This document shows, piece after piece, positions 2,713 to 17,688 of a stretch of 18,447 bases of DNA. The stretch covers positions 1-18,447 of the IMG/VR virus record IMGVR_UViG_2778261463_000012; one strand, written 5' to 3'. Source of the DNA: a virus (Duplodnaviria; Heunggongvirae; Uroviricota; Caudoviricetes). Made by a program: the position numbers and the translations under genes. Below the pieces are notes generated by a model that ran no database searches, was not told the DNA's origin, and saw only the letters and a list, made by a program, of their open reading frames with translations. Positions within the stretch are counted from its first letter, which is position 1. Each line of letters opens with the position of its first letter.

Positions 2713-2928
2713 ATGTCTCTCAACATTGACTGTGTACCTATTACGACATGGTGTCGTGATATGGGAGAAACTCTGGATGCCGTTAACAAACGGTTACAAC
2801 GTGGAGTATGGGAGGAAGGGGTTCAGGTTTTAAATGTGGAAGGCTCCAAAGAACGATGGATTGATTTAACTGAGGTTTCAAAATGGGCGAGAAAAAACAA
2901 ATATCCTTATCACTCCCAAGAGGAATAA
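2713..2928 (+). CDS. putative excisionase-like small DNA-binding protein (71 aa)
   Basis: Small ORF immediately upstream of, and overlapping by 46 nt, a tyrosine integrase gene (classic xis-int arrangement). GAGGT precedes ATG 2713. Assignment is by context and size only. Confidence 0.4.
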   Translation: MSLNIDCVPITTWCRDMGETLDAVNKRLQRGVWEEGVQVLNVEGSKERWIDLTEVSKWARKNKYPYHSQEE

Positions 2929-4055
2929 CAATTCGTCAATACAAGAATTGCTCTACATTAGTTGTGACCTTCACCTATAAAGGGGTTCTTTGCAGGGAAC
3001 CCTTATCAAGGCTGGAAGTTAACGCAAAGGGGATTAAGTATGCTGAACGACTGCTCGGAGAAATAAAAAACAAAATTAGTGATGGCTCATTCGATTTTTC
3101 AGAGTACTTTCCAAACTCCAAGAAGCTTATATTATTTGGAATGGTAAAGAGGAATAAAAGTGTGAAAGATTACCTAGATGAATATTTAGAAATTTGCAAA
3201 AACAGAAAGTTATCCCCTTCAACAATAAATGGATATGAAAAATGTGTATCTGCATTATCGGAACTACATAACTTACATGTTATTGACCTGACTCCAGCAA
3301 TTTTAAAGAAATGGATTTCAAGAAGAACAACAAAACTGAAGACCATCAGAAACAATTTATCATTTTTAAGAAGCGCAGTAGATGAGGCTGTCACTGACGG
3401 ACTTATAACAATAAACCCTGTAAAACTAGTTAGTGCAAGTAGATACCATGCTGTTAACCATACAACCAATTCTGCCGAATATGAAGTAGACCCCTTTACG
3501 CCAGCAGAAGCAGCCGCTATCTACAACGCCTGTATCTATGAGGAATGGCGAAACCTTTTTTGTTTCGCATTCAATACAGGCCTTCGAAGCTCAGAATTAT
3601 GTGCATTACGTTGGTCTGATATTGATTTTATTGGTCATACCGTTCATGTACAGGTTGCTTCTGTCGTTGGTGTGATAAAAGGAACAAAAACAAAAGCTGG
3701 TACAAGAAAAGTTGAATTAAACAGTGAAGCCCTAATGGCATTACAGTCACAGAAATCATTTACGATGATGAGAAGTGCTTTTGTATTCAGTGACCCAAAG
3801 ACACGCAAACCGTGGGCTAATTCAGCAGCGATTCGTAAGAAAGCCTGGATCCCGACTCTTAAAAAAGCTGGTGTTCGTTACCGTAATCCATATCAGACCA
3901 GACATACATTCGCTACACGACATATCAGCCAGGGGGCAAATTTATTCTGGCTTGCAGGCCAAATGGGGCACAAAGGACCCGAAATGCTTTTTAGACACTA
4001 TGGTTCATATTTATCAGAATATGATGGTAATACAGCAATCTCAGAAGTAATCTAG
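2883..4055 (+). CDS. tyrosine recombinase / integrase (390 aa), AT-rich
   Basis: C-terminal catalytic region with the conserved box II pattern (RHTFATRHISQGANLFWLAGQMGHKGPEMLFRHYGSY; HxxR and terminal Tyr). Transcribed toward the ssrA-like att core at 4189-4214. Confidence 0.85.
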   Translation: MGEKKQISLSLPRGITIRQYKNCSTLVVTFTYKGVLCREPLSRLEVNAKGIKYAERLLGEIKNKISDGSFDFSEYFPNSKKLILFGMVKRNKSVKDYLDEYLEICKNRKLSPSTINGYEKCVSALSELHNLHVIDLTPAILKKWISRRTTKLKTIRNNLSFLRSAVDEAVTDGLITINPVKLVSASRYHAVNHTTNSAEYEVDPFTPAEAAAIYNACIYEEWRNLFCFAFNTGLRSSELCALRWSDIDFIGHTVHVQVASVVGVIKGTKTKAGTRKVELNSEALMALQSQKSFTMMRSAFVFSDPKTRKPWANSAAIRKKAWIPTLKKAGVRYRNPYQTRHTFATRHISQGANLFWLAGQMGHKGPEMLFRHYGSYLSEYDGNTAISEVI

Positions 4056-4188
4056 TCGCTTAAATATTTCAAAATATGTACAAAGGTAGGACACAGAATA
4101 GACCTTAACTTACACCTGAAATACATAAAAATATACAGTGAAATATGAAATCATTTGTATTTCATATTGTTATGTAATTTGGGTGTTT

Positions 4189-4214
4189 GGGTTCAACTCC
4201 CGCCAGCTCCACCA
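4189..4214 (+). other. att core: 26-nt copy of the tmRNA (ssrA) 3' end (GGGTTCAACTCCCGCCAGCTCCACCA); not a full tmRNA gene
   Basis: Exact match to the 3'-terminal 26 nt of E. coli tmRNA as I recall it, ending in CCA. The sequence upstream (4060-4188) is AT-rich and unrelated to tmRNA, so this is an attachment-site duplicate. Confidence 0.7.
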
Positions 4215-4250
4215 CTTGCTCTTCCGGATACGTCCGGAGAAATCCTGAAA

Positions 4251-4283
4251 GCCCGCATGGCACAAGCTCTGCGGGCTTTTTTG
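4251..4283 (+). terminator. rho-independent terminator (ssrA-type) downstream of att core
   Basis: Stem GCCCGCA (4251-4257) / TGCGGGC (4271-4277) followed by TTTTTT (4278-4283). Confidence 0.6.
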
Positions 4284-4326
4284 TGTCTACTGTTGTCCGA
4301 GGATATCCAGCTAAATCCAGTGATTA

Positions 4327-4378
4327 TTGGTATACGTTTAGGTATACGGTAGGATGTATACCTAAACGCGTATACCAA
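4327..4378. promoter_or_regulatory. imperfect inverted repeat of GGTATACG-containing arms immediately upstream of int; candidate Int-binding/operator site
   Basis: Left arm TTGGTATACGTTTAGGTATACG (4327-4348) and right arm GTATACCTAAACGCGTATACCAA (4356-4378) are near-perfect reverse complements. A single copy of the arm recurs at 12578-12599 near the other end of the element. Confidence 0.4.
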
Positions 4379-4398: not shown

Positions 4399-5598
4399 TT
4401 GGCAAGAACGACACGCCCCCTGACCAACACAGAAGTACTGCGCGCTAAAGCGTTAGAAAAGGATCTAACGTTGCATGATGGCGATGGTCTTTTTCTACTC
4501 GTTAAAACGAACGGTAAGAAGTTATGGCGTTTCCGTTATCAACGTCCGGCAACAAAGCAGCGGACAATGATGGGGCTAGGTACCTTCCCAGCTCTTTCAC
4601 TTGCTGACGCCCGACGGTTAAGAGCGGATTACCTTTCCTTGTTAGCCAACGGAATTGACCCGCAAATTCAAGCTGAAATTGCAGAGGAACAGCAGCAAAT
4701 CGCACAGGACAGTATTTTTACAACGGTCGCCGCTAACTGGTTCCAGCTTAAAAGCAAAAGCGTAACCCCTGATTACGCAAGAGACATTTGGCGCTCATTG
4801 GAGAAAGATGTATTCCCTGCCGTTGGTGAACTCCCAGTTCAGCAAATCAAAGCCCGAACGTTGGTTGAAGCGCTTGAGCCAGTCAAAGCTCGTGGGGCGC
4901 TAGAGACTGTACGTCGGCTAGTGCAACGCATTAACGAGATAATGATCTTTGCCGTAAATACAGGGCTGATCGATGCCAATCCAGCTTCCGGGGTTGGAAT
5001 GGCCTTTGAGAAGCCAAAAAAGCAAAACATGCCAACACTACGACCAGAAGAACTACCAAATCTAATGCGTTCTTTAGCCATGTCTAATTTATCTGTATCG
5101 ACTCGCTGCCTTATCGAATGGCAGCTTCTAACACTTGTACGCCCTTCTGAAGCCTCTGGTACTCAATGGGCAGAGATCGATCTTGAGAATAAACTCTGGA
5201 CGATCCCTGCAGGACGAATGAAAGCCAAGCGAGAACATATTGTTCCTCTGTCGGTTCGAGCATTAGATATTTTAGAGATAATGAAGCCTATTAGTGCACA
5301 TCGTGAATATGTTTTCCCAAGTAGAAATAATCCTAAGCAACCAATGAATAGTCAGACAGCTAATGCTGCATTAAAAAGAATTGGTTATGGAGGAAAGCTT
5401 GTTGCACATGGTTTGCGTTCTATAGCCAGTACAGCTATGAATGAGGAAGGTTTTAATCCCGATGTTATTGAAGCAGCATTAGCGCATAGCGATAAAAATG
5501 AAGTCCGTAAAGCATATAATCGTTCGACTTACCTTTATCAACGAATTGATTTAATGAATTGGTGGGCTAACTTCGTGTTTAAAAAAACACACGAATAG
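4399..5598 (+). CDS. int: P4-type tyrosine integrase (399 aa, TTG start)
   Basis: AAGGAG at 4385-4390 then TTG 4399. N-terminus MARTTRPLTNTEVLRAKA...DGDGLFLLV and C-terminal HGLRSIASTAMNEEGF...ALAHSDKNEVRKAYNRSTY match the P4/CP4-57 integrase architecture. Sits directly downstream of the ssrA 3'-end att core. Confidence 0.9.
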   Translation: MARTTRPLTNTEVLRAKALEKDLTLHDGDGLFLLVKTNGKKLWRFRYQRPATKQRTMMGLGTFPALSLADARRLRADYLSLLANGIDPQIQAEIAEEQQQIAQDSIFTTVAANWFQLKSKSVTPDYARDIWRSLEKDVFPAVGELPVQQIKARTLVEALEPVKARGALETVRRLVQRINEIMIFAVNTGLIDANPASGVGMAFEKPKKQNMPTLRPEELPNLMRSLAMSNLSVSTRCLIEWQLLTLVRPSEASGTQWAEIDLENKLWTIPAGRMKAKREHIVPLSVRALDILEIMKPISAHREYVFPSRNNPKQPMNSQTANAALKRIGYGGKLVAHGLRSIASTAMNEEGFNPDVIEAALAHSDKNEVRKAYNRSTYLYQRIDLMNWWANFVFKKTHE

Positions 5599-5611
5599 CC
5601 CACATAAAATA

Positions 5612-5634
5612 AGAGGCTGCTCAATGCAGCCATT
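5612..5634. terminator. probable bidirectional terminator between convergent int and cargo operon
   Basis: Hairpin GGCTGC (5615-5620) / GCAGCC (5626-5631), flanked by A-rich sequence upstream and T-rich downstream on the + strand. Confidence 0.4.
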
Positions 5635-6379
5635 ATTTCAATGAATTAATATACGTATTTAATCCTGTTGATTTTATAACTCCCATCACTTCTGGTGATT
5701 TTTTCAAATAAACAACATTAGGCCATGACAGATAAGCAATAATAATACATATTAGTCGAACCATTGCAAAATCAGACAGATTAATGAGAGTTTCAATATA
5801 CATATGTTTATCTTGCTCATCGAAACCATTTTCAGTTATAACTTCATTATCAACAAGTTTAACTGCAAGATAAAACCTTCTTGCAAATGAAAACATCTTA
5901 TCATCAGATTTATCATCTAATGATTCAATTATTTTAATCAAAGCATCTTCAGCAATACCTCTTTGAATACTGGTTTTAATCAGTTGCTCAAGTTTATTTA
6001 CAGCATTAACCTTTTTAACTTCAAAATCACCACTTGGAGATGGAAAAATCAAAGAGAAATCATCAAAAGCACTTTTTTGCGCGTTAATTAAATTATAAAA
6101 TTGAAATTCAAATGACTTCCTTTTATCAAGAAACTCCTGTCTTTTAGTCTCATTAATTAAACATTCATTCGCAGTTAATTGCATTTTAACTGATTTAATT
6201 AGAAGTAATATTGAAATGAAACTCAATATAGGATTAAGAACACCTCCAAAATAATCACCAAACTGTCCCCATATCTCTTTGTTTTCAGAAAGAGTGGTTG
6301 AGCTTCCACCAAATTGATAATAGTATAATCCAAAGACTACTAATATCAAAATAGATGTAACCCAACCTATATACCTCAT
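5633..6379 (-). CDS. membrane-anchored protein of unknown function (248 aa); downstream gene of the two-gene cargo operon
   Basis: Two N-terminal hydrophobic helices (IGWVTSILILVVFGLYYY and VLNPILSFISILLLIKSV) flank a Gly/aromatic-rich motif (WGQFGDYFGG); charged, probably helical C-terminal domain. Start overlaps the stop of the upstream gene (ATGA). GAGGTGG RBS. AT-rich. Confidence 0.65.
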   Translation of the reverse strand: MRYIGWVTSILILVVFGLYYYQFGGSSTTLSENKEIWGQFGDYFGGVLNPILSFISILLLIKSVKMQLTANECLINETKRQEFLDKRKSFEFQFYNLINAQKSAFDDFSLIFPSPSGDFEVKKVNAVNKLEQLIKTSIQRGIAEDALIKIIESLDDKSDDKMFSFARRFYLAVKLVDNEVITENGFDEQDKHMYIETLINLSDFAMVRLICIIIAYLSWPNVVYLKKSPEVMGVIKSTGLNTYINSLK

Positions 6380-7197
6380 ACCCCATCCACCTCAATAATT
6401 AAGTATTTCACTACCTCACCATTACTGATGGTTAAATCTCTAACTTTTAATAACAAATACTCTCGCTCTTCTTCTGCCAGTCTATTGTTAGCATCTAGAT
6501 TACTCGTTATTTTCTTGGTCTGGGCATCAGTAACGTATTTTAGACCATTCAAAAAACCAAAAGAAGTCGTTTTTTCTTCCCCCCTGACTAACAGTCTACC
6601 ATTTCCAGTAAAAGTATTAAACCTAGTAACTATAGCTTCTATCTGATGATCATGATTAGTTTCAATTAGCTCAGTTATATTCAAAGCGGTATTTTTGTTT
6701 AAAGTAATTATCTTTTGCTTCTCACCCGGCTTTCTATAATTCAAATCAACTGAATAGTTGCACATGGTGGAAATTTTATGCATATTTTTAAGTCTATTTC
6801 GAATAGCTTTAGTCAACTCATCTTCAATATCGTCTAATCCGGAAACCACTTTTTTTGCAGCGTCACTCAATGCCGGACCTTCTAAAAAAAGAGACTCATA
6901 AATATAATAACTCATAACTTCTGCAAATACAGTGCGAGTCATACTTGAAAGACGCGCTGCAACTTTTCTATCTGATATAACAACATCAAATCGCTGACCA
7001 AAAGAGCCTGTAAAAGAATGCTTAAGGTTTGTTCTTATTTCATTAGATTGATGTCTGTTTTCTTTAACTTTACCTCGAAGTATTGCCTCTGTAATAATAC
7101 TGGTAACTCCAGATGCACCCAATAGTGTCTGGAGAGCATAATCCATATCTATTTCATCGTCGCCGCTATTGATAACCAAATCAAGACTAACTTTCAT
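6376..7197 (-). CDS. protein of unknown function (about 273 aa); upstream gene of the two-gene cargo operon
   Basis: ORF track gives 6376-7245, but GGGGAAA precedes the ATG at 7197 (MKVSLDLV...), which I prefer as the start. Soluble; no Walker or other catalytic motif I can assign. AT-rich, unlike the P4 backbone. Confidence 0.6.
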   Translation of the reverse strand: MKVSLDLVINSGDDEIDMDYALQTLLGASGVTSIITEAILRGKVKENRHQSNEIRTNLKHSFTGSFGQRFDVVISDRKVAARLSSMTRTVFAEVMSYYIYESLFLEGPALSDAAKKVVSGLDDIEDELTKAIRNRLKNMHKISTMCNYSVDLNYRKPGEKQKIITLNKNTALNITELIETNHDHQIEAIVTRFNTFTGNGRLLVRGEEKTTSFGFLNGLKYVTDAQTKKITSNLDANNRLAEEEREYLLLKVRDLTISNGEVVKYLIIEVDGV

Positions 7198-7333
7198 TAT
7201 TTCCCCACGAATTGATAAAAATCTGCTCAATGAATAAAAGTCCATATTTTTATACAGTAATCAAACTTCCAATGTCTAAAATATGCAAACACATTAAACT
7301 AAATTTATGATAGTGATCAACATATTGCGCGCA

Positions 7334-7516: not shown

Positions 7517-8089
7517 TTACACAGACTGACGTGATGCCAGTTGCGCACTTTTACGCGAAAAAATCATGTTCTGCGCAGGGGTGAATTTTTCACGGCTGTC
7601 ATCCACCGAAGCCGCGTCAGGCCTGAATCCGATGGTCGTTAAAATGTCGCTATCCTGTGCGGAATAATTAATTTTTTCCCCCTTCGCAAGCCAGGACAGA
7701 AGGGCTTCACGCAGGGCATCTGTGGCACGCTGTATGGCACAGTTTCGGGCAATGGCCGTCAGCTCACTGTAGCCCATCAGCTCCGGTGCCAGTGCGGCCG
7801 CCAGTGCTGTGCCGTGCTGCTGCATAAAATCATTCAGCCGGTCGCGGATGCTGATGTGCTGAACGGCTTCATGCGAACGAATATAACGACCGGCAGCCTG
7901 ATTCACCTGCCATTTTCTGACTTCGATAATATTGCGTAATTCGTCCAGGCGACTGACGTTTCTGCCTTCCCCGGACAGAAGCCGCAGATATTCCTGTTCG
8001 GCCGCAGCCAGCTCATTTTTGCGTTGCAGCCATGCTGCTTTGTTATTCTGACAGGTGTCAAAGGCCTGCTGTAAGGCTGTGCTTTCCAT
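7517..8089 (-). CDS. psu: Psu, polarity suppression / capsid decoration protein (190 aa)
   Basis: 190-aa protein (MESTALQQAFDTCQNNKAAWLQRKNELAAAEQEY...) of P4 Psu length and sequence character, in the conserved position after delta in the sid-delta-psu block and adjacent to cos. Confidence 0.85.
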   Translation of the reverse strand: MESTALQQAFDTCQNNKAAWLQRKNELAAAEQEYLRLLSGEGRNVSRLDELRNIIEVRKWQVNQAAGRYIRSHEAVQHISIRDRLNDFMQQHGTALAAALAPELMGYSELTAIARNCAIQRATDALREALLSWLAKGEKINYSAQDSDILTTIGFRPDAASVDDSREKFTPAQNMIFSRKSAQLASRQSV

Positions 8090-8162: not shown

Positions 8163-8663
8163 TCATTCCAGACGCAGCGAATATGATTGTGTTTTTAAGC
8201 GTACTGGCGGCAGTTCCTGTTTTTCATGCAGGCTTTCTGCCAGTTCGTCCGGCGTGACCGGGCGGACAATAAAACGGTTGATGGTCTGAAGCGTTTTAAA
8301 CACCAGACCACATCCCGGATCCGTGCACACATAAAAACGCTCGGTGACTTCCTGAGACAGACGCCGCGATGTTCTTGACAGTGCAAGGCCTTTACATCTC
8401 CGACAACAATATCCGGTAACAAGCATTCTTTTCGGGCGTTTCATACTGCCGGAGGCTGACGTCAGTGAATCGCGGTATCTCTGTTTGCCTGAAATGTATT
8501 CCATTCCTGAATCTTTACTGTCAGAGAAAAAGCTTTCACTCGCTTCAAATGTCGCAGAGCAATAAATATTCCGGCACTGTGCAATCATTATCTTGGTGCC
8601 ATCGTCCATGAAATGTGCGCGGCGGGTGTGAGCAACATGTCCACACGACGGGCAGTAAATCAT
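8163..8663 (-). CDS. delta: Delta, Ogr/Delta-family zinc-finger late transcriptional activator (166 aa from MIYCPSCGH)
   Basis: Ogr-like zinc-finger motifs (CPSCGH...QCRNIYCSATF, and a second CCRRC...CTDPGCG half), consistent with the duplicated-Ogr architecture of P4 Delta. The ORF track starts at 8720; I prefer the internal ATG at 8661-8663, giving 166 aa. Confidence 0.8.
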   Translation of the reverse strand: MIYCPSCGHVAHTRRAHFMDDGTKIMIAQCRNIYCSATFEASESFFSDSKDSGMEYISGKQRYRDSLTSASGSMKRPKRMLVTGYCCRRCKGLALSRTSRRLSQEVTERFYVCTDPGCGLVFKTLQTINRFIVRPVTPDELAESLHEKQELPPVRLKTQSYSLRLE

Positions 8664-8956
8664 GACAGCAGTCCTCTGGCCTTCAGCTCTGCTCCCTGCT
8701 GGTCTATTTTGTCCTGCCACACCTTGCGCTGTGCCGGTGTGCCTGCCACCTCATAATCCATGTGCGGGAGTGTTGCCGCTGACAGTCCGGCCAGCCGGAG
8801 AACCGGCTCGCCGCTGAGGCTGATTTGTATCTGTTTAATTTTCTGTTCCAGCGATGATTTCACCTGCTGCATGACAGCCTTTTCCGGTGCGACGTAGCCC
8901 TGATGGCCGGTGGTGTTGGCGAGCGGATTTTCCTGTACCAGAATGCTCAGATGCAT
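8660..8956 (-). pseudogene. sid: sid-like ORF, probably 5'-truncated (98 aa from its only ATG; frame open without a start up to a stop at 9116-9118)
   Basis: Occupies the position of sid directly upstream of and overlapping delta. My translation of the upstream frame finds no ATG/GTG/TTG before the stop at 9116-9118, so at most about 152 codons remain, against 244 aa for P4 Sid. Identity rests on position, not motif. Confidence 0.4.
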
Positions 8957-9489
8957 TGCCCGGACAAGCGCCTCACAGGTTTCATTCAGGGCGTGTTCCA
9001 GCTCATGCTCTGCATACAGACTCAGCAGGTGATGATGTGCCTTCCGGTATCCTTGTGCGTATCCTCGCTGACGGGCGCACCACAGACATCCCGCTGGGGC
9101 GTTTTCTGCGGGAATTTACCTGTGACCGTCCTGACCTGTTCAAACGCAGCCCCGTAAACCGGCATGCGGTACTGAAAGAAATGGCCGGAGACCCGGAATT
9201 ACAGAAATGGCGGGAGAAATATCTGGATATTTACCCGCAGGAGCCTGTTCCGGTCAGCCGGGAAGCACCGGTGGCGCGGGAATGGCGGGAAATTCCCCGC
9301 ACGGAGCCTGACCCGGAAATCACACCGGATAACAGTTACCGCAATTATCTGTAATTAAAAAACGACACCCGAAAAATTAAATGTGCGTATTCGCGCAGGG
9401 ATACGCACGTCTTCAGGAGACGCAGATATGCCTTATCAGTTAATGCAACCGGCACGGAATTCAGTCATCTGTCACAGGGAGGAAAGCAA

Positions 9490-9824: not shown

Positions 9825-12158
9825 ATGAAAATGAACGTAACCGCCACCGTCAGCCATGCGCTCGGCCACTGGCCGCGTATTCTCCCGGCGCTGGGGATTC
9901 AGGTGCTGAAGAACCGTCATCAGCCCTGTCCGGTCTGTGGCGGGAGTGACCGCTTCCGTTTTGATGACAGGGAGGGGCGCGGCACCTGGTACTGCAATCA
10001 GTGTGGTGCCGGTGACGGCCTGAAACTGGTTGAAAAGGTGTTTGGTGTCTCCCCGTCCGACGCGGCCGCAAAAGTGGCTGCCGTGACCGGCAGCCTGCCC
10101 CCGGCTGACCCGGCAGTGACGGCTGCCGCCGGTGCTGAAACAGACGCTGCCCGGAAGAACGCAGCCGCACTGGCACAAACCCTGATGGCGAAAACCTGTC
10201 CCGGAACCGGTAACGCCTACCTGACCCGCAAGGGCTTTCCCGGCCGGGAATGCCGGATGCTGACCGGCACACACAGAGCCGGTGGCGTGAGCTGGCGCGC
10301 CGGTGACCTTGTGGTGCCACTGTATGACGACAGCGGCGAACTGGTTAACCTTCAGTTAATCAGTGCTGACGGCCGTAAGCGCACTCTGAAAGGCGGACAG
10401 GTCAGGGGCACCTGTCACACCTTTGAAGGACAGAATCAGGCCGGAAAACGTCTGTGGATAGCGGAGGGATACGCGACCGCACTTACCGTGCATCACCTGA
10501 CCGGTGAAACGGTGATGGTGGCGCTTTCTTCCGTGAACCTCCTTTCTCTGGCCAGCCTTGCCCGGCAGAAGTATCCGGCCTGTCAGATTGTCCTTGCCGC
10601 AGACCGTGACCTCAGCGGTGACGGCCAGACAAAAGCCGCCGCAGCCGCAGATGCGTGTGAGGGCGTTGTTGCCCTGCCGCCGGTCTTCGGTGACTGGAAT
10701 GATGCCTTCACGCAGTACGGCGGGGAGGCCACCCGTAAGGCCATTTACGATGCCATCCGGCCACCGGCTGAAAGCCCGTTCGACACCATGAGCGAAGCGG
10801 AGTTTTCCGCCATGAGTACCAGCGAAAAGGCCATGCGTATCTATGAGCATTACGGCGAGGCGCTCGCGGTCGATGCCAACGGCCAGCTTCTGTCCCGCTA
10901 TGAAAATGGTGTCTGGAAGGTGCTGCCGCCACAGGACTTTGCCCGGGATGTGGCCGGGCTGTTTCAGCGTCTGCGCGCGCCGTTCTCCTCCGGGAAGGTG
11001 GCCTCCGTGGTGGACACCCTGAAGCTGATTATTCCGCAGCAGGAAGCCCCCTCCCGCCGCCTGATTGGCTTTCGTAACGGCGTGCTCGACACGCAGAACG
11101 GCACGTTCCACCCGCACAGTCCGTCACACTGGATGCGCACCCTGTGCGATGTGGATTTCACCCCGCCGGTGGACGGTGAAACGCTGGAGACCCACGCCCC
11201 CGCGTTCTGGCGCTGGCTTGACCGTGCCGCCGGTGGCCGTGCGGAAAAACGCGACGTGATTCTGGCCGCACTGTTTATGGTGCTGGCGAACCGCTACGAC
11301 TGGCAGCTCTTTCTGGAGGTGACCGGTCCCGGCGGCAGCGGCAAAAGTATCATGGCCGAAATAGCCACCCTGCTGGCCGGGGAGGATAACGCCACGTCGG
11401 CCACCATCGAGACGCTGGAATCCCCGCGTGAACGTGCCGCGTTAACTGGCTTCTCACTGATACGCCTGCCGGACCAGGAAAAATGGAGCGGCGACGGTGC
11501 CGGACTCAAGGCCATCACCGGCGGCGATGCGGTGTCCGTGGACCCGAAATACCGGGATGCGTACTCCACGCATATCCCGGCGGTGATTCTGGCCGTGAAC
11601 AATAACCCGATGCGCTTCACCGACCGCAGCGGCGGCGTGTCACGCCGGCGGGTGATTATTCACTTCCCGGAACAGATAGCCCCGCAGGAGCGCGACCCGC
11701 AGCTTAAGGACAAAATCACCCGCGAGCTGGCGGTCATCGTGCGTCACCTGATGCAGAAGTTCAGCGACCCGATGCTCGCCCGGTCACTGCTTCAGTCCCA
11801 GCAGAACTCAGACGAGGCACTGAACATCAAACGGGATGCCGACCCGACGTTTGATTTTATCGGCTATCTGGAAACCCTGCCGCAGACCAGCGGCATGTAT
11901 ATGGGGAACGCCAGTATCATCCCGCGCAATTACCGTAAATACCTCTATCACGCCTATCTGGCCTACATGGAGGCAAACGGCTACCGGAATGTACTCAGCC
12001 TGAAAATGTTCGGGCTGGGGCTGCCGGTGATGCTGAAGGAATACGGACTGAATTACGAGAAGCGCCATACCAAACAGGGGATACAGACCAACCTGACGCT
12101 GAAAGAGGAAAGCTACGGCGACTGGCTGCCAAAATGTGACGACCCTGCAACAACCTGA
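9825..12158 (+). CDS. alpha: P4 alpha-type primase-helicase (777 aa)
   Basis: N-terminal zinc-binding motif (CPVCGGSDRFRF...WYCNQCGAGDG), a TOPRIM-like primase region (LWIAEGYATALT...VLAADRDLSGDGQ) and a Walker A box (TGPGGSGKS) of a C-terminal helicase domain. Length equals that of P4 alpha; followed by terminator and crr repeats. Confidence 0.9.
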   Translation: MKMNVTATVSHALGHWPRILPALGIQVLKNRHQPCPVCGGSDRFRFDDREGRGTWYCNQCGAGDGLKLVEKVFGVSPSDAAAKVAAVTGSLPPADPAVTAAAGAETDAARKNAAALAQTLMAKTCPGTGNAYLTRKGFPGRECRMLTGTHRAGGVSWRAGDLVVPLYDDSGELVNLQLISADGRKRTLKGGQVRGTCHTFEGQNQAGKRLWIAEGYATALTVHHLTGETVMVALSSVNLLSLASLARQKYPACQIVLAADRDLSGDGQTKAAAAADACEGVVALPPVFGDWNDAFTQYGGEATRKAIYDAIRPPAESPFDTMSEAEFSAMSTSEKAMRIYEHYGEALAVDANGQLLSRYENGVWKVLPPQDFARDVAGLFQRLRAPFSSGKVASVVDTLKLIIPQQEAPSRRLIGFRNGVLDTQNGTFHPHSPSHWMRTLCDVDFTPPVDGETLETHAPAFWRWLDRAAGGRAEKRDVILAALFMVLANRYDWQLFLEVTGPGGSGKSIMAEIATLLAGEDNATSATIETLESPRERAALTGFSLIRLPDQEKWSGDGAGLKAITGGDAVSVDPKYRDAYSTHIPAVILAVNNNPMRFTDRSGGVSRRRVIIHFPEQIAPQERDPQLKDKITRELAVIVRHLMQKFSDPMLARSLLQSQQNSDEALNIKRDADPTFDFIGYLETLPQTSGMYMGNASIIPRNYRKYLYHAYLAYMEANGYRNVLSLKMFGLGLPVMLKEYGLNYEKRHTKQGIQTNLTLKEESYGDWLPKCDDPATT

Positions 12159-12199: not shown

Positions 12200-12216
12200 A
12201 TCCCTGAATTCCCCGA

Positions 12217-12515
12217 AGGTGAACAATCCACTGTTCACCCTTCACCGTATATTCACCCGTTATCACACTGAAATTAAAAGAGAAAAACGAAAGGTGAACA
12301 GTGTGAACAATCAAATCAAAAAAAACTTTTTTTCTCCCTGTGTGATTTCAGTACGGGGGATTAATCACCGGTATGAGTCACACCGGCAGAATGCCGGAGG
12401 TGAAGAATCGAATGTTCACCCTTCACCCATTATTCACCACCTATCACTCTGAAATAAAAGGAGAAAATCAAAGAGTGAACAGTGTGAACAGTTCTTTCGA
12501 AAAAAAATTTTTTTC
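12217..12515. repeat. crr-like region: two direct repeats of about 120 bp about 60 bp apart, carrying TGTTCACC/GGTGAACA iterons
   Basis: Unit 1 about 12217-12335 and unit 2 about 12398-12515 align almost base for base (e.g. ATGTTCACCCTTCACC... and ...GTGAACAGTGTGAACA... followed by A-run/T-run). This matches the P4 crr organisation and the alpha-binding octamer TGTTCACC. Confidence 0.7.
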
Positions 12516-12577
12516 CTGTACGATATAGCATCAATCCAAGTAAAAATGCGCTTTCATTTCACATTAACTTACAGCCA

Positions 12578-12599
12578 TTGGTATACGATTAGGTATACG
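12578..12599. promoter_or_regulatory. single copy of the GGTATACG-containing arm repeat (candidate Int arm-type site) near the right end of the P4-like element
   Basis: TTGGTATACGATTAGGTATACG differs by one base from the left arm at 4327-4348. Confidence 0.35.
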
Positions 12600-12652
12600 C
12601 ACAAAAACTGAATTAAACAAAATCGTTAAAAATCAAAGCGATACAATATTTA

Positions 12653-12674
12653 TTCAAACTCCGCCAGCCCACCA
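12653..12674 (+). other. degenerate second copy of the tmRNA 3'-end att core (TTCAAACTCCGCCAGCCCACCA)
   Basis: Related to 4192-4214 with a few substitutions/indels, ending in CCA, followed by the same type of terminator and by a second P4-type integrase gene. Confidence 0.55.
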
Positions 12675-12710
12675 ATTTTTGATATATTGAAGTTCAGTGA
12701 AGTCTATCAA

Positions 12711-12742
12711 GCCCGCATGGAACCAGCCTTGCGGGCTTTTTT
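12711..12742 (+). terminator. rho-independent terminator (ssrA-type) after second att core
   Basis: Stem GCCCGCA (12711-12717) / TGCGGGC (12730-12736) followed by TTTTTT (12737-12742); near-identical to the stem at 4251-4277. Confidence 0.55.
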
Positions 12743-12840
12743 ACGTCTATAGTAGTCTACCGAGAATTGCTAGAATCTACTCGTTATGGCACCCTTTTTG
12801 GGACCCAACACAAAGGGTCCAAAACATGAGGGTCCCAAAC

Positions 12841-14070
12841 ATGGCAAAAATCGCTAAGAAGCTCACTGACACTGAAATCAAAAGCACCAAACCTGCCGAG
12901 AAAGAGGTTAACCTTTTTGACGGCGATGGTTTGCTCCTGCGAATCGCCCCCTTAGCGAAGGGAGGAAAGAAAAATTGGTATTTCAGATATGCAGTGCCTG
13001 TGACCAAAAAGCGAACTAAGGTGAGCTTAGGAACCTATCCTCACCTTACACTTGCGAAGGCACGAGCTTTACGTGATGAGTACTTGTCGTTGCTTGCAAA
13101 TGGTATAGACCCACAAGTTCATAACACCCACAAAGCCAATGCCCTTAAGGATGCAACGGAACATACATTTCAAGCAGTAGCCAAGAAGTGGCTTGATGAG
13201 AAAGTCAAAACGTCAGGCATCTCCCAGGATCATGCTAACGACATCTGGCGAAGCCTAGAGAGAAATATCTTTCCAACGTTGGGTGATACCCCCATTAAGG
13301 AGATTCGCCCTAAAATGCTTAAACAGCATTTAGACCCCATAGAAAAACGAGGTGTCCTTGAAACACTTCGCCGCGTCATATCCCGCCTGAATGAAATTTT
13401 CCGCTATGCAGCAACAGAAGAACTCATAGAATTCAATCCGGCTGACAACCTGGGGCAACGGTTCAGCAAGCCAAAAAAACAGAATATGCCAGCATTACCC
13501 CCTTCCGAACTCCCCCGCTTCCTGGTTGCTCTAAACAATGCTTCTATCCGTTTAGAAACAAGGCTACTGATTGAGTGGCAACTTCTCACATGGGTTCGCC
13601 CTGGTGAAGCTGTTCGCACAAGATGGTCAGATATTGATATAGAAACCAGCATGTGGAACATCCCGGCGGAGTTTATGAAAATGAAGAAGCCTCACAAAGT
13701 TCCACTGAGCAAAGAATCTTTGCGAGTCTTGGATTCAATGAAAGCCATCAGCGGGCATAGAGAGTGGGTTTTTCCCAGTATCAAAGCTCCACTCAATCAC
13801 ATGCATGAACAAACAGCTAATGCGGCTATAATCCGTATGGGCTTCGGAGGTGAGCTTGTAGCTCATGGTATGCGATCAATCGCTAGAACGGCGGCTGAGG
13901 AGTGTGGCAAGTTTAGAACTGATGTCTTAGAAGCCGCCCTTGCCCACTCGAAAAAAGATGAAATAATTGCAGCCTACAATCGTGCAGAGTATCTCACAGA
14001 ACGTGTGGTTCTCATGCAATGGTGGAGTGACTATGTTTCGTCTCAAAAATACAAAGTTATTGCCGCATAA
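12841..14070 (+). CDS. int: P4-type tyrosine integrase, second copy (409 aa from MAKIAKKL)
   Basis: The ORF is open from 12697, but the N-terminus MAKIAKKLTDTEIKSTKPAEKEVNLFDGDGLLLRI aligns with the start of the integrase at 4399, and GAGGG precedes ATG 12841. C-terminal catalytic region HGMRSIARTAAEE...ALAHSKKDEIIAAYNRAEY. Paralog of the 4399-5598 integrase, clearly diverged. Confidence 0.85.
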   Translation: MAKIAKKLTDTEIKSTKPAEKEVNLFDGDGLLLRIAPLAKGGKKNWYFRYAVPVTKKRTKVSLGTYPHLTLAKARALRDEYLSLLANGIDPQVHNTHKANALKDATEHTFQAVAKKWLDEKVKTSGISQDHANDIWRSLERNIFPTLGDTPIKEIRPKMLKQHLDPIEKRGVLETLRRVISRLNEIFRYAATEELIEFNPADNLGQRFSKPKKQNMPALPPSELPRFLVALNNASIRLETRLLIEWQLLTWVRPGEAVRTRWSDIDIETSMWNIPAEFMKMKKPHKVPLSKESLRVLDSMKAISGHREWVFPSIKAPLNHMHEQTANAAIIRMGFGGELVAHGMRSIARTAAEECGKFRTDVLEAALAHSKKDEIIAAYNRAEYLTERVVLMQWWSDYVSSQKYKVIAA

Positions 14071-14352
14071 CTCTTCCATGATGGGTTAACTATCTTGATT
14101 TATTTGAAGAATTAATGATCACACCATTAACCTATGTGGACTAAGCATAGCCATTTACAAATGGGTACCTTGAGGCCACATAACGAAAGCTGTCGGTCAT
14201 ATCAGCTAAATAATTCACATCTCTTCTCGATTATCATACACCTCGAAGAACTACCAAATTCGCTCTAATCAATGATAAAACAGTTGAATTCGGTTAAAAT
14301 TTGATCAATTTTATCCTCTACATTGTATTGAATCATCCATGAGGTTTTGTGC

Positions 14353-15909
14353 ATGGCTAGCGGAAATGAAAAAAATCATAGAGTTAGGGTCGCACAGTAC
14401 TTGAGGATGTCTACCGACCATCAGCAATATTCTTTACATAATCAGTCTGAATATATCAAAGATTATGCTGAAAAGAACAATATGGAAATCGCTTATACCT
14501 ACGATGATGCAGGTAAGAGCGGAGTCAGTATCGTAGGCAGGCATTCTTTGCAGCAGTTACTTAGCGATGTAGAACAAAAGAAAATAGATATACAGGCTGT
14601 ATTATTTTATGATGTGAGCCGTTTTGGTCGTTTTCAAAATAGTGATGAAGCTGCATATTATTCCTTTCTATTTGAAAGAAATGGTGTAGATCTTATATAT
14701 TGTTCCGAACCTATACCCACTAAAGATTTCCCTTTAGAGTCCTCTGTTATACTGAATATAAAAAGATCAAGTGCTGCATATCACAGCAGGAATCTATCTG
14801 AAAAGGTATTTATAGGGCAAGTAAATTTAATAAAGCTTGGTTATCATCAAGGCGGTATGGCTGGTTATGGGCTGAGACGTCTTTTAGTAGACGAAAATGG
14901 CATAGCTAAAGAAATATTGAATTTCCGCAAAAGAAAGAGTATTCAAACAGATAGGGTAATATTAATTCCGGGACCAAAAAATGAAATAAAAATTGTAAAT
15001 AGAATCTATGATCTCTTTATAGATAGTAACGTCCCAGAATTCATTATTGCTGAGAGATTAAATGAACAGAGCATACCTGCAGAAAATGGAACATCATGGA
15101 CTCGTGCAAAAATACATCAAATTTTGACAAATGAAAAATATATTGGAAACAACATATATAACAAAACCTCATCTAAACTAAAAAGTAAGCTTGTAAAAAA
15201 CCCCAAACATGAATGGATTAGATGTGACAAGGCATATAAACCAATTATTTCAAAGAAAAAATATAATAAAGCTCAAGAAATAATTCAGCTCCGATCCATT
15301 CATTTGACTAATGAAGATCTATTAGAAAAGCTAAAAGAAAAATTAGAATCTAATGGAAAACTATCAGGCTTTATCATTGATGAAGATGATACAGGCCCTT
15401 CATCTTCTGTTTATAGAACCCGATTTGGTGGTCTTTTAAGAGCATATACTTTGATTGGTTATAAGCCAGAACATGATTACAGCTATCTCCAAATAAATGA
15501 AGCACTAAGATCATTTTACTCAGAGATAATTGAGGATTTTAAGGGCGAAATATTAAAAAGTAACTGTCATATAGACGAGTATAAATATTACCCAATGCTT
15601 TACATCAATGATGAGTTTTTAATTTCCGTCCTTGTTACTAAATGCATACATATGAAATCAGGTAAACTTAGATGGAAAGTCCGGTTTGATAACTCACAGA
15701 AAGCAGACATAACAATTGTTATACGAATGAATTCACAAAATATTTCACCTCTTGATTTTTATATCATACCAAAGATTGAAAACGAATATAGTAAAATGTG
15801 TATGATGGAAACAAACAACATTCGGTTAGATCTCTATAGATTTGATAATCTTGATAAATTTCTACAAATTATTACTCGCATGAAAGTGAGGGAACTATAT
15901 GCTGCCTGA
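14353..15909 (+). CDS. large serine recombinase (about 518 aa)
   Basis: N-terminal resolvase-type catalytic domain (VAQYLRMSTDHQ with the presumptive catalytic Ser; YDDAGKSG; DVSRFGR) and a recombinase domain (GYGLRR...SWTRAKIHQILTNEKYIGN), then a long C-terminal extension. GAGG at 14341-14344 precedes ATG 14353 (ORF track starts at TTG 14347). Very AT-rich. Confidence 0.8.
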   Translation: MASGNEKNHRVRVAQYLRMSTDHQQYSLHNQSEYIKDYAEKNNMEIAYTYDDAGKSGVSIVGRHSLQQLLSDVEQKKIDIQAVLFYDVSRFGRFQNSDEAAYYSFLFERNGVDLIYCSEPIPTKDFPLESSVILNIKRSSAAYHSRNLSEKVFIGQVNLIKLGYHQGGMAGYGLRRLLVDENGIAKEILNFRKRKSIQTDRVILIPGPKNEIKIVNRIYDLFIDSNVPEFIIAERLNEQSIPAENGTSWTRAKIHQILTNEKYIGNNIYNKTSSKLKSKLVKNPKHEWIRCDKAYKPIISKKKYNKAQEIIQLRSIHLTNEDLLEKLKEKLESNGKLSGFIIDEDDTGPSSSVYRTRFGGLLRAYTLIGYKPEHDYSYLQINEALRSFYSEIIEDFKGEILKSNCHIDEYKYYPMLYINDEFLISVLVTKCIHMKSGKLRWKVRFDNSQKADITIVIRMNSQNISPLDFYIIPKIENEYSKMCMMETNNIRLDLYRFDNLDKFLQIITRMKVRELYAA

Positions 15910-16795
15910 AAAAAATGAATTCCCAATAATTCAAATTGAGATTGCAAAAATAAAATTTCTTAACCCACGAACAAGAAATAAGGTAGTGCATGAAGAAATA
16001 AAGGAAAGCATAAAAAAAAGAGGATTAAGCAAGCCTATAAGCGTAAGAGCTATTGATGAAGACGATTTCAAATATGCTTTAATTTGTGGTCAAGGGAGAA
16101 TAGAGGCTCTTGTTGCATTAGGTGAAACTATTATTCCAGCAATTATAAGAGATGTATCAGAAGAAGATGCTTACGTTATGAGTTTAGTTGAAAACATTGC
16201 AAGGAGAAGACCACGTTCTAATGAGTTATTACAGGTGATTAAAGACATGAAAATCAGAGGACTTTCAGACTCCGAAATAAGTGAGATTACTGGATATTCA
16301 TCGAACTGGGTGAGCAGTATTAATATGCTTCTTGATAAGGGAGAGCATAAACTTCTCTCAGCAGTCGAACGGGGTAATTTGCCTCTGTATCTCGCAGTGC
16401 AATTTGCAAGATGTGAAACTGAGGAAGCACAAGATATTCTTACCGAAGCATATGATAAAAAATTAATAAAAAGTCGGGACATTATAAAGATAAAATACAT
16501 TCTAAATCAAAGAACAGTTGGGAATAAAGGTGCAAAAGCAGCCGGATTTTATTATCACAAACCATCAAAAAGGATGACTGCAGAGGAGTTGATTGAGCTT
16601 TATGAAAATAGTATCGCTGAACATAAATCTGTTTATAACAACTCGAAATTTATAAAAACCAATCTACTAATAATAAATGAGATTTTTAACATCATAATGA
16701 TGAATAAAAGCTTTCAAAATATACTTGAACAAGAGAATCTTTCAGAACTACCATCTCAGATATTAAACCCAGTAAACAAAGAGGTATCAAAATGA
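15899..16795 (+). CDS. ParB/Srx-superfamily (ParB N-terminal domain-like) protein, paralog 1 (298 aa)
   Basis: ParB-like N-terminal motifs (PISVRAIDEDDFKYALICGQGRIEAL; ENIARR). Start overlaps the recombinase stop by 11 nt; RBS GTGAGGGA. Confidence 0.7.
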   Translation: MLPEKNEFPIIQIEIAKIKFLNPRTRNKVVHEEIKESIKKRGLSKPISVRAIDEDDFKYALICGQGRIEALVALGETIIPAIIRDVSEEDAYVMSLVENIARRRPRSNELLQVIKDMKIRGLSDSEISEITGYSSNWVSSINMLLDKGEHKLLSAVERGNLPLYLAVQFARCETEEAQDILTEAYDKKLIKSRDIIKIKYILNQRTVGNKGAKAAGFYYHKPSKRMTAEELIELYENSIAEHKSVYNNSKFIKTNLLIINEIFNIIMMNKSFQNILEQENLSELPSQILNPVNKEVSK

Positions 16796-17688
16796 TTCAG
16801 ATACGTTTTGGCAAAAATTTTATTTACCTGGAAACTAATAAGTTAATTCCATCTAAGGAATTATTAGAAAACGTAAAGCGAAGCCATAAATATCATCAAA
16901 TAGTTACCTCTATCGAAAGCTTGGGTATTATTGAACCAATAATAGTATTCTATGACAAAGATAAAGATGTCACTAAGATACTTGATGGCCATTTAAGGGT
17001 TGAGGCTTTAAAAGACTTAGATATAGAAAAAGCTCCATGTATACTTTCGAGCATAGATGATGCTTTCACTCCTAACAAACAAGTGAATCATATAAATGTA
17101 GTTGAAGAACATAGAATCATAATTAAGTCTCTGGCAAAAGTATCAATTGAAAAACTTAGTGCTGCTTTGGGCATATCTGTTGATGCCATAAAAGATAAAG
17201 CTAATGTGATGAACGGCATAGATCCAAGTGTAATTGCGAAACTTTCTGATAAACCTATACCTAAGGCTACATTTGACGTTTTGAGGAAAATGAAGCCAAT
17301 TCGTCAAATTGAAGCAGTCGGTACAATGATTAATTTTGATAATTATAGTAAAAAATTTGCAATGAGCATCTTGGATGCAACACCGTCATCGATGATAGTA
17401 AATAAAGGGAAAAACACTCCCTATAAAAAGGACATAAAAAAAACCATACTTCGTCTGGAACAAGAAATGGCAACAACTTCGGAAGAAACGAAAAAACTTC
17501 AAACCGAGTATGGTTCAGATATGTTGAAATTCGTTATAATCCAGTCATATATTAATAAATTACTTGGCAACTCTAAAGTTCTTCATTGGTTCTTAGAAAA
17601 CGAGGTTGATTATCTTAATGAGTTAAAAAGAATTTCTAGAATAAATTCTTTGGATGATAAGACTCTTACTGAAAACAGCCAGTCATAG
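16792..17688 (+). CDS. ParB/Srx-superfamily (ParB N-terminal domain-like) protein, paralog 2 (298 aa)
   Basis: ParB-like N-terminal motifs (IIEPIIVFYDKDKDVTKILDGHLRVEAL; VVEEHR). ATGA overlap with the preceding gene; RBS AGAGG. Same length as paralog 1. Confidence 0.7.
   Translation: MIQIRFGKNFIYLETNKLIPSKELLENVKRSHKYHQIVTSIESLGIIEPIIVFYDKDKDVTKILDGHLRVEALKDLDIEKAPCILSSIDDAFTPNKQVNHINVVEEHRIIIKSLAKVSIEKLSAALGISVDAIKDKANVMNGIDPSVIAKLSDKPIPKATFDVLRKMKPIRQIEAVGTMINFDNYSKKFAMSILDATPSSMIVNKGKNTPYKKDIKKTILRLEQEMATTSEETKKLQTEYGSDMLKFVIIQSYINKLLGNSKVLHWFLENEVDYLNELKRISRINSLDDKTLTENSQS

Follow-up and report, generated by a model that had tools for sequence, protein, structure and literature searches.

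What is the function of two hypothetical genes that occupy the slot between the integrase gene and psu of a P4-like satellite, a slot from which many anti-phage cargos have been validated (Rousset et al. 2022)? In this study, we address this question for the gene pair A-B carried by IMGVR_UViG_2778261463_000012 (Caudoviricetes), in a stretch of 18,447 nucleotides (nt) that is referred to below as the window and on which all coordinates are based. On balance, A-B is probably a mobile, self-contained abortive-infection cassette of two genes that acts against phage, in which A would sense the phage and B would damage the inner membrane. We infer this function from the location of the pair, which carries a prior for defence, from the remote resemblance of B to AbiC/AbiP-type proteins, and from the obligatory soluble partner that diverges together with the membrane protein. 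The pair comprises the following features:

6376..7197, minus strand: gene A, soluble protein of 273 amino acids (open reading frame (ORF), family profile start, RefSeq)
5633..6379, minus strand: gene B, predicted inner-membrane protein of 248 amino acids (ORF, hydrophobicity, AlphaFold2 (AF2) model, invariant columns, hhalign)
6376..6379, minus strand: ATGA, overlap of the A stop and the B start (direct sequence reading)

Gene structure and linkage of A and B

The ATGA overlap points to translational coupling of the two genes. The longest ORF covering A (6376-7245, minus strand) encodes 289 amino acids; because the family profile begins at residue 17 of this ORF in every homologue and RefSeq annotates 273 amino acids, the start of A was assigned to the ATG at 7197-7195, which is preceded by GGGGAA. 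The ORFs, the sequence itself and RefSeq agree with the layout given in an initial annotation, made from the letters of the window alone, which had described two co-oriented minus-strand genes of about 273 and 248 amino acids joined by an ATGA overlap.

That annotation had also proposed checking whether homologues of the pair co-occur, and they do so without exception: B follows A on the same strand in 55/55 loci with a complete A. The distance between the two genes ranges from -23 to +10 nt in all 52 loci in which it was measured, and the other three loci show an overlap of 4 or 8 nt. In the reverse direction, A lies upstream of each of five full-length B homologues, from Pseudomonas aeruginosa, Serratia, Vibrio cholerae, Achromobacter, and Xanthomonas. 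The identity matrices of A and B are strongly correlated (r = 0.92 over 40 unique pairs), a value reached in 0/2000 permutations of a Mantel test. Both genes have hundreds of homologues and are under strong purifying selection (for the two closer pairs of alleles, pN is 0.04-0.18, whereas pS is saturated at 0.64-0.78), and therefore are not chance ORFs; judged by allele-pair divergence, A is more constrained than B. A single disrupted B was found among the 55 loci, in a metagenomic P2-like prophage (L005 6816-7543), where a frameshift splits the gene into two ORFs and leaves A intact.

Location in the int-psu slot

The slot and its surroundings contain the following features:

4399..5598, plus strand: P4-type tyrosine integrase, one wall of the slot (Pfam Arm-DNA-bind_3, Phage_int_M, Phage_integrase)
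5615..5631, minus strand: hairpin followed by a T-run, GGCTGCATTGAGCAGCC then TCTTATTTTA (terminator scan)
7198..7326, minus strand: cargo-specific region upstream of A, holding the A ribosome-binding site GGGGAA
7327..7516, minus strand: conserved P4 cos-proximal region (sequence match to the P4 reference)
7517..8089, minus strand: psu, the other wall of the slot (Pfam Psu, E 1e-88)
8163..8720: delta (Pfam Ogr/Delta)
9825..12158: alpha primase-helicase (Pfam)

The pair is thus flanked by Psu, Ogr_Delta, alpha primase, and integrase, all recognised by Pfam, which places it in the int-to-cos/psu slot of a P4-like satellite, as the initial annotation had it. A remnant of sid and a DUF5375 gene lie between delta and alpha. 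The boundary between backbone and cargo was set against the P4 cos-proximal sequence quoted in Table S2A of Rousset et al. 2022, the window matching the P4 reference up to ...GGGGAAAGCAC(C/T)GCGCGCAA. The AT-richness that had also been noted is borne out, with a guanine-cytosine (GC) fraction of 0.317 for the cargo (5599-7326) against 0.448 for the integrase gene, 0.515 for psu-delta, and 0.614 for alpha.

The GC-rich hairpin at 5615-5631 lies 1 nt past the B stop and probably terminates transcription of A-B intrinsically; on the plus strand, where it lies 17 nt past the integrase stop, it likewise appears terminator-like. The region upstream of A (7198-7326) probably holds the promoter of A. 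A weak candidate consists of a -35 element TAGACA (7278-7273), an 18-nt spacer, and a -10 element TATAAA (7254-7249), and would possibly place the transcription start near the upstream ATG at 7245-7243.

Prior record of the pair

In RefSeq, A (WP_000868779) and B (WP_001269066) are both annotated as hypothetical. The pair is catalogued in Table S1B of Rousset et al. 2022 as System #31, "hypothetical + hypothetical", found in 49 of 5,251 loci with no Pfam annotation, and the protein sequences given there are near-identical to those of the window; a homologous pair is present in the P2-hotspot table of the same study. The description of the locus as unrecognised therefore holds for the curated thresholds of Pfam, NCBIfam, and PADLOC, below which both proteins fall, and does not hold for the hotspot catalogue. 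None of the six systems named in a 2026 preprint on P4 cargos matches the pair, and a literature search found no paper with either accession, or with "putAbiC" or PF16872. In short, the pair has been catalogued already but without record of characterisation, and is one of many such cargos in a known hotspot. A 2026 screen indicates how often such cargos protect against phage: randomly chosen unclassified P4 cargos did so in 6/8 tests, and incomplete known systems from the P4 hotspot in 8/11.

Carriers and distribution

The pair is found on a wide range of carriers. In 20 of 26 complete viral loci, it lies directly upstream of a P2-type portal gene and in most cases has gpA/DinI as its opposite neighbour, and the same P2/186-type portal-upstream site holds it in Escherichia coli, Citrobacter, and Pectobacterium. 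It is also present in Klebsiella phage Kp4865-4 and in a P4-like element of Serratia. Among 5,426 complete E. coli genomes, three alleles that have diverged from one another are all rare: the P4 allele occurs in 7, a P2-prophage allele in 14, and an IncX-plasmid allele in 14, all annotated as hypothetical. Further carriers include an integrase island of P. aeruginosa and small chromosomal islets of Aeromonas and Chromobacterium. In V. cholerae (contig L055, 4180-5744), the pair lies about 0.8 kb downstream of the filamentous-phage genes Zot and DUF2523 and upstream of matP, and an integrated inovirus may be its carrier. A comparison with the flanking DNA showed the pair to be AT-rich in each of the nine hosts examined.

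Two plasmid settings bear on the possibility that A-B is a toxin-antitoxin or addiction module, with B as membrane toxin and A as protein antitoxin, which stabilises mobile elements without sensing phage. On the ColRNAI-type plasmid pKP1906522_4 of Klebsiella (4,652 bp; L053), which also has rop and a helix-turn-helix (HTH) gene, a pair whose A is about 37% identical is the only cargo (2818-4373). On IncX1/X3 conjugative plasmids, the pair lies among the type I toxin genes dinQ and dqlB. The presence of the pair as the only cargo of a 4.65-kb ColE1-type plasmid, the company of dinQ and dqlB on IncX, the tight coupling and co-inheritance of A and B, and the fact that gop-beta, the native cargo of P4, has been described as probably toxin and antitoxin are all in keeping with addiction. 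However, A, with 273 amino acids, two domains, and a higher conservation than B, would be an unusually large and constrained antitoxin, the larger, soluble gene is here the upstream one, and the commonest homes of the pair are two phage and satellite hotspots enriched for defence. An addiction module is therefore an unlikely explanation, although addiction and abortive infection are not mutually exclusive.

No P2/P4 marker gene was detected beside the pair in P. aeruginosa, P. brassicacearum, Aeromonas, Chromobacterium, or Janthinobacterium. Because it is found without such markers as well as on plasmids, the pair is not specific to helper-satellite biology. This finding also bears on a non-defence accessory role, be it as a membrane-stress or lysogenic-conversion factor, in helper-satellite interference, or as a bacteriocin/immunity-like pair. 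Such a role would be compatible with the lack of a demonstrated function, with the annotation of both proteins as hypothetical everywhere, and with the two of eight unclassified P4 cargos that gave no protection in the 2026 screen. Yet the genomic surroundings of the pair in Achromobacter and Xanthomonas are likewise free of P2/P4 marker genes, other copies of the pair reside on plasmids, and two genomes have defence-type neighbours: the Achromobacter pair adjoins DUF87/HerA, and the Xanthomonas pair adjoins Mrr, ParE, RhuM, and a RecD-like gene. In addition, neither a signal peptide nor a colicin-like domain was found in A, which has no transmembrane (TM) segment. We consider an accessory role improbable.

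Protein A

The initial annotation had taken A to be soluble and B to carry two N-terminal TM helices, and both assignments agree with Kyte-Doolittle profiles and the AF2 model. A contains no hydrophobic window. It has no match reaching the curated thresholds of Pfam, NCBIfam, or PADLOC and no match to an enzyme family in any library; its sole family match is phrog_13337 in PHROGs, which has no assigned function. A profile search of 1.84 billion representative proteins recovered only 212 clusters, and nearly all full-length relatives are about 270 amino acids long.

A is composed of an N-terminal alpha/beta domain (residues 1-175), for which no significant match was found among solved structures, and a confidently assigned C-terminal OB-fold (177-269), in which five strands form a closed beta-barrel and a helix connects strand 3 to strand 4. 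The most conserved motif, the invariant TRFNxxTGNGRL (T190-R191-x-N193-x-x-T196-G-N-G-R200-L201), lies in the first beta-hairpin of the barrel, and N232 and N236 are located on its inter-strand helix. These conserved residues would form a binding face. The OB-fold, together with the lack of an enzyme-family match, suggests that A is a ligand-sensing rather than a catalytic protein.

A possible nucleotidyltransferase motif in A had been judged weak and non-canonical at the outset, and this judgement was sound. The GS...D site concerned lies in a loop modelled with low confidence; its residues S64 and G66 are invariant, but distant homologues have Ser at the position of the Asp. A nucleotidyltransferase was accordingly rejected, as there is no family match, no Pol-beta nucleotidyltransferase fold with GS...DxD, and no conserved Asp. 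A further candidate was set aside: residues 121-204 of A (window 6585-6836) match the PADLOC candidate PDC-S25, a profile of 517 positions, weakly (E about 1e-5), and just 4/42 A members do so, at about 1e-5 over an 80-residue stretch.

Protein B

Hydrophobic segments of B are found in Kyte-Doolittle windows starting at residues 1-3 and 43-51. In the AF2 model (pLDDT 88), a first helix (residues 2-25, TM1) is followed by a long helix (34-106) that comprises TM2 and a stalk, with the TM part at about 43-63; past the stalk, a beta-hairpin leads to a helical bundle (123-247). A third hydrophobic helix (about 195-225), scored as a third TM segment by Rousset et al. 2022, is buried within this bundle in the AF2 model. 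By the positive-inside rule, B is predicted to adopt an N-in/C-in topology with a cytoplasmic helical domain. The family has 18 invariant residues, ten of which cluster around the start of TM2 (W37, G41, D42, G45, G46, N49, P50, I51, L52, and F54), and this conserved motif lies on the periplasmic side of TM2.

No significant match to B was found in Pfam, NCBIfam, or PADLOC, and PHROGs places it in phrog_8999, which has no assigned function. However, the motif WGQFGDYFGGVLNP of B is also found at the head of proteins in which Pfam PF16872 (putAbiC) follows later in the chain. In hhalign, the B family matches five PF16872-bearing proteins with a probability of 99.8% (E 1.2e-27) over 162 aligned columns (B 12-181). 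A hidden Markov model of the B family likewise matches four proteins, P0120, P0129, P0132, and P0139, at 1e-18 to 1e-25; all four pass the PF16872 gathering score, and two of them (P0132 and P0139) match the PADLOC AbiC and AbiP models. Because a profile-profile match and a shared motif coincide with sub-threshold scores in curated models, we place B on a remote branch of the AbiC/AbiP superfamily, although those models do not include it. The earlier statement that neither protein shows a motif assignable to a known defence family thus stands for A, which remains unmatched, and needs amending for B, which is remotely homologous to membrane proteins of the putAbiC/AbiC/AbiP type.

Two distant AbiC-like relatives that share the N-terminal module alone (P0119 and P0120) are solitary, without A. 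In another protein, P0117, the fusion partner of the two-helix membrane module with WGQFGDYFGGVLNP is a set of pentapeptide repeats rather than an AbiC-like domain; in the PDB, P0117 matches only generic pentapeptide proteins. This arrangement suggests that the B-type membrane module may be portable and joined to varied cytoplasmic domains. Weak matches of 6/26 B members to ZorB/MotB (best E 5e-4) are confined to the TM region and were not taken as homology.

A further possibility is superinfection exclusion, in which B, aided by A, would block entry of the incoming phage genome without killing the cell. Carriage mainly by temperate P2-like prophages and a satellite, the inner-membrane location of B, and a conserved motif facing the periplasmic side of TM2 would all accord with such a role. 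Known exclusion proteins, however, are as a rule small membrane proteins that act singly, an entry block leaves little obvious place for an OB-fold partner in the cytoplasm, and the AbiC/AbiP/PdpSau relatives of B act after DNA entry, so that we give exclusion only a slim chance. Membrane damage after infection is the activity that we favour for B.

Proposed mechanism and points against it

The design envisaged in the initial annotation, a soluble partner with a membrane protein as a candidate abortive-infection system, is still the best reading of the pair, in line with its strict synteny and many mobile carriers. In the proposed mechanism, B would be anchored in the inner membrane by its two N-terminal helices, which bear the invariant Gly/Asp/Asn-Pro motif, and A would serve as a cytoplasmic sensor or gatekeeper whose OB-fold face binds a ligand derived from the phage, which may be a single-stranded nucleic acid or a protein. 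Ligand-bound A would then release or activate B. Once activated, B would act as the effector and oligomerise via TM2 and the stalk, and TM2, which is rich in Gly and has an invariant Asp and a kink at Asn-Pro, may form a membrane lesion that collapses membrane potential or integrity. Alternatively, A might be an antitoxin-like guard on B.

A more specific version of this scheme, which we regard as possible rather than probable, would make A-B a new two-component AbiC/AbiP branch, in which the OB-fold protein A, with an N-terminal domain not described before, recognises a cue from the phage, be it nucleic acid or protein, and gates a pore or channel formed by the conserved Gly/Asp/Asn-Pro motif in TM2 of B, the single-gene AbiC/AbiP proteins being the version without a separate partner.

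Several points weigh against the defence reading and its details. The assignment of roles is its weakest step: the sensor and effector roles could be reversed or shared, the N-terminal domain of A could be an unrecognised enzyme, and single-gene AbiC/AbiP-like proteins give no precedent for the role of A. As regards homology, hhalign follows the similarity no further than helix 1 of the putAbiC domain (YFRxxYxIhKyVD); PF16872 does not match B at E <= 1 and matches 0/26 aligned B-family members at E <= 0.1; and the PADLOC AbiC/AbiP models match 0/26 members at E <= 1. As regards the record, the motifs of the pair are absent from the tested-system Table S2A/B of Rousset et al. 2022, its sequences are absent from the accessible parts of the supplements of the 2026 P2/P4 preprint and of DefensePredictor, and no phenotype is on record for the pair or any homologue. 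At the locus itself, a consensus scan upstream of A returned no convincing sigma-70 promoter. Finally, the satellite is probably defective, with its cargo intact: relative to the satellite of E. coli E3, to which it is otherwise 98-100% identical, it lacks 2,179 bp (E3 locus L001 12451-14629; junction at 9047-9049 in the window), comprising the N-terminal part of sid, an HTH regulator, an Icd-like gene, and small ORFs.

Implications

AbiC and AbiP were discovered in Lactococcus over 30 years ago. A-B brings a relative of them, together with an obligatory and probably sensing partner, into E. coli, where large phage collections, escape-mutant genetics, and membrane-physiology assays make the mechanism directly testable; pKP1906522_4 would offer a natural minimal construct of the pair. 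As a compact 1.7-kb module that occurs across a helper-phage hotspot, a satellite hotspot, small and conjugative plasmids, and gamma- and beta-proteobacterial islands, the pair is also a marker of the circulation of defence cargo. Furthermore, one "hypothetical + hypothetical" entry of the P4/P2 hotspot catalogues is filled in.

The satellite and its neighbouring islands

A 26-nt stretch on the plus strand of the window (4189..4214) duplicates the 3' end of ssrA, with a 100% match to the terminal 26 nt of E. coli E3 ssrA; it constitutes the core of the attachment site and delimits the P4-like satellite on the left. The satellite integrase (4399-5598) is identical to the annotated integrase of strain E3. 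A 122-nt unit occurs directly after alpha in two direct copies (12213-12334 and 12394-12515; 80% identical, 181 nt apart), whose location and length would agree with those of the P4 cis-replication region (crr). An Rfam scan of the whole window detected no RNA family.

The window holds no tmRNA gene, and the satellite does not directly adjoin ssrA. Another island is located to its left, so that islands are arranged in tandem at ssrA. The left island has its own tyrosine integrase of the Arm-DNA-bind_2 type (2883-4055), a SPFH/Band-7 protein with a lipoprotein-like signal sequence (1057-1884), and DUF5406 and DUF4222 proteins. On the right, there is another P4-type integrase (12697-14070), which shares 50% identity with the first and is preceded by the same sequence motifs. 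After it comes an AT-rich block (GC about 0.30-0.35) with genes for a large serine recombinase (14347-15909) and for two ParB_N/RepB-like proteins (15899-16795 and 16792-17688). The region 12577-17688 looks like a third island.

Comparison with known systems

The closest working analogy of A-B is provided by lambda RexAB and the RexAB-like Sucellos (SclAB), two-gene abortive-infection systems borne by prophages or cassettes, in which a soluble sensor of about 280 amino acids acts with a membrane-bound protein that dissipates the membrane potential and both components are required. This analogy does not extend to homology: there is no RexA/RexB Pfam match and no PDB sequence match, and RexA is not among the structural matches listed. 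RexB has four TM helices in about 144 amino acids, whereas B combines two TM helices with a large cytoplasmic domain.

Within the same int-psu slot, gop-beta-cII, HAD-hydrolase + 3TM, reverse transcriptase (RT)-nitrilase + 1TM, and Hailong each pair a soluble protein with a TM protein, the latter being thought to act as a suicide effector. No sequence relationship between these cargos and A-B was detected, and A is no hydrolase, reverse transcriptase, or nucleotidyltransferase according to family and fold searches. Hailong in particular was rejected, as A lacks a nucleotidyltransferase or HEPN domain and B has no pentapeptide or K-channel Pfam match.

AbiC and AbiP have been grouped as one family in a 2026 review, according to which they still have no function assigned by structure-based analysis. 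AbiP binds RNA and single-stranded DNA, and the AbiP-like PdpSau of Staphylococcus aureus prophages depolarises and permeabilises the membrane upon phage infection. Unlike AbiC, AbiP, and PdpSau, which are single-gene systems, B has A upstream of it at each of the 55 loci, and its hosts are Proteobacteria, unlike the Firmicutes hosts of AbiC/AbiP. As in AbiC, AbiP, and PdpSau, N-terminal membrane anchor helices of B are followed by a cytoplasmic helical domain, and carriage is on mobile elements, plasmids, or prophages; PdpSau provides a precedent for the membrane depolarisation on infection that is proposed here for B.

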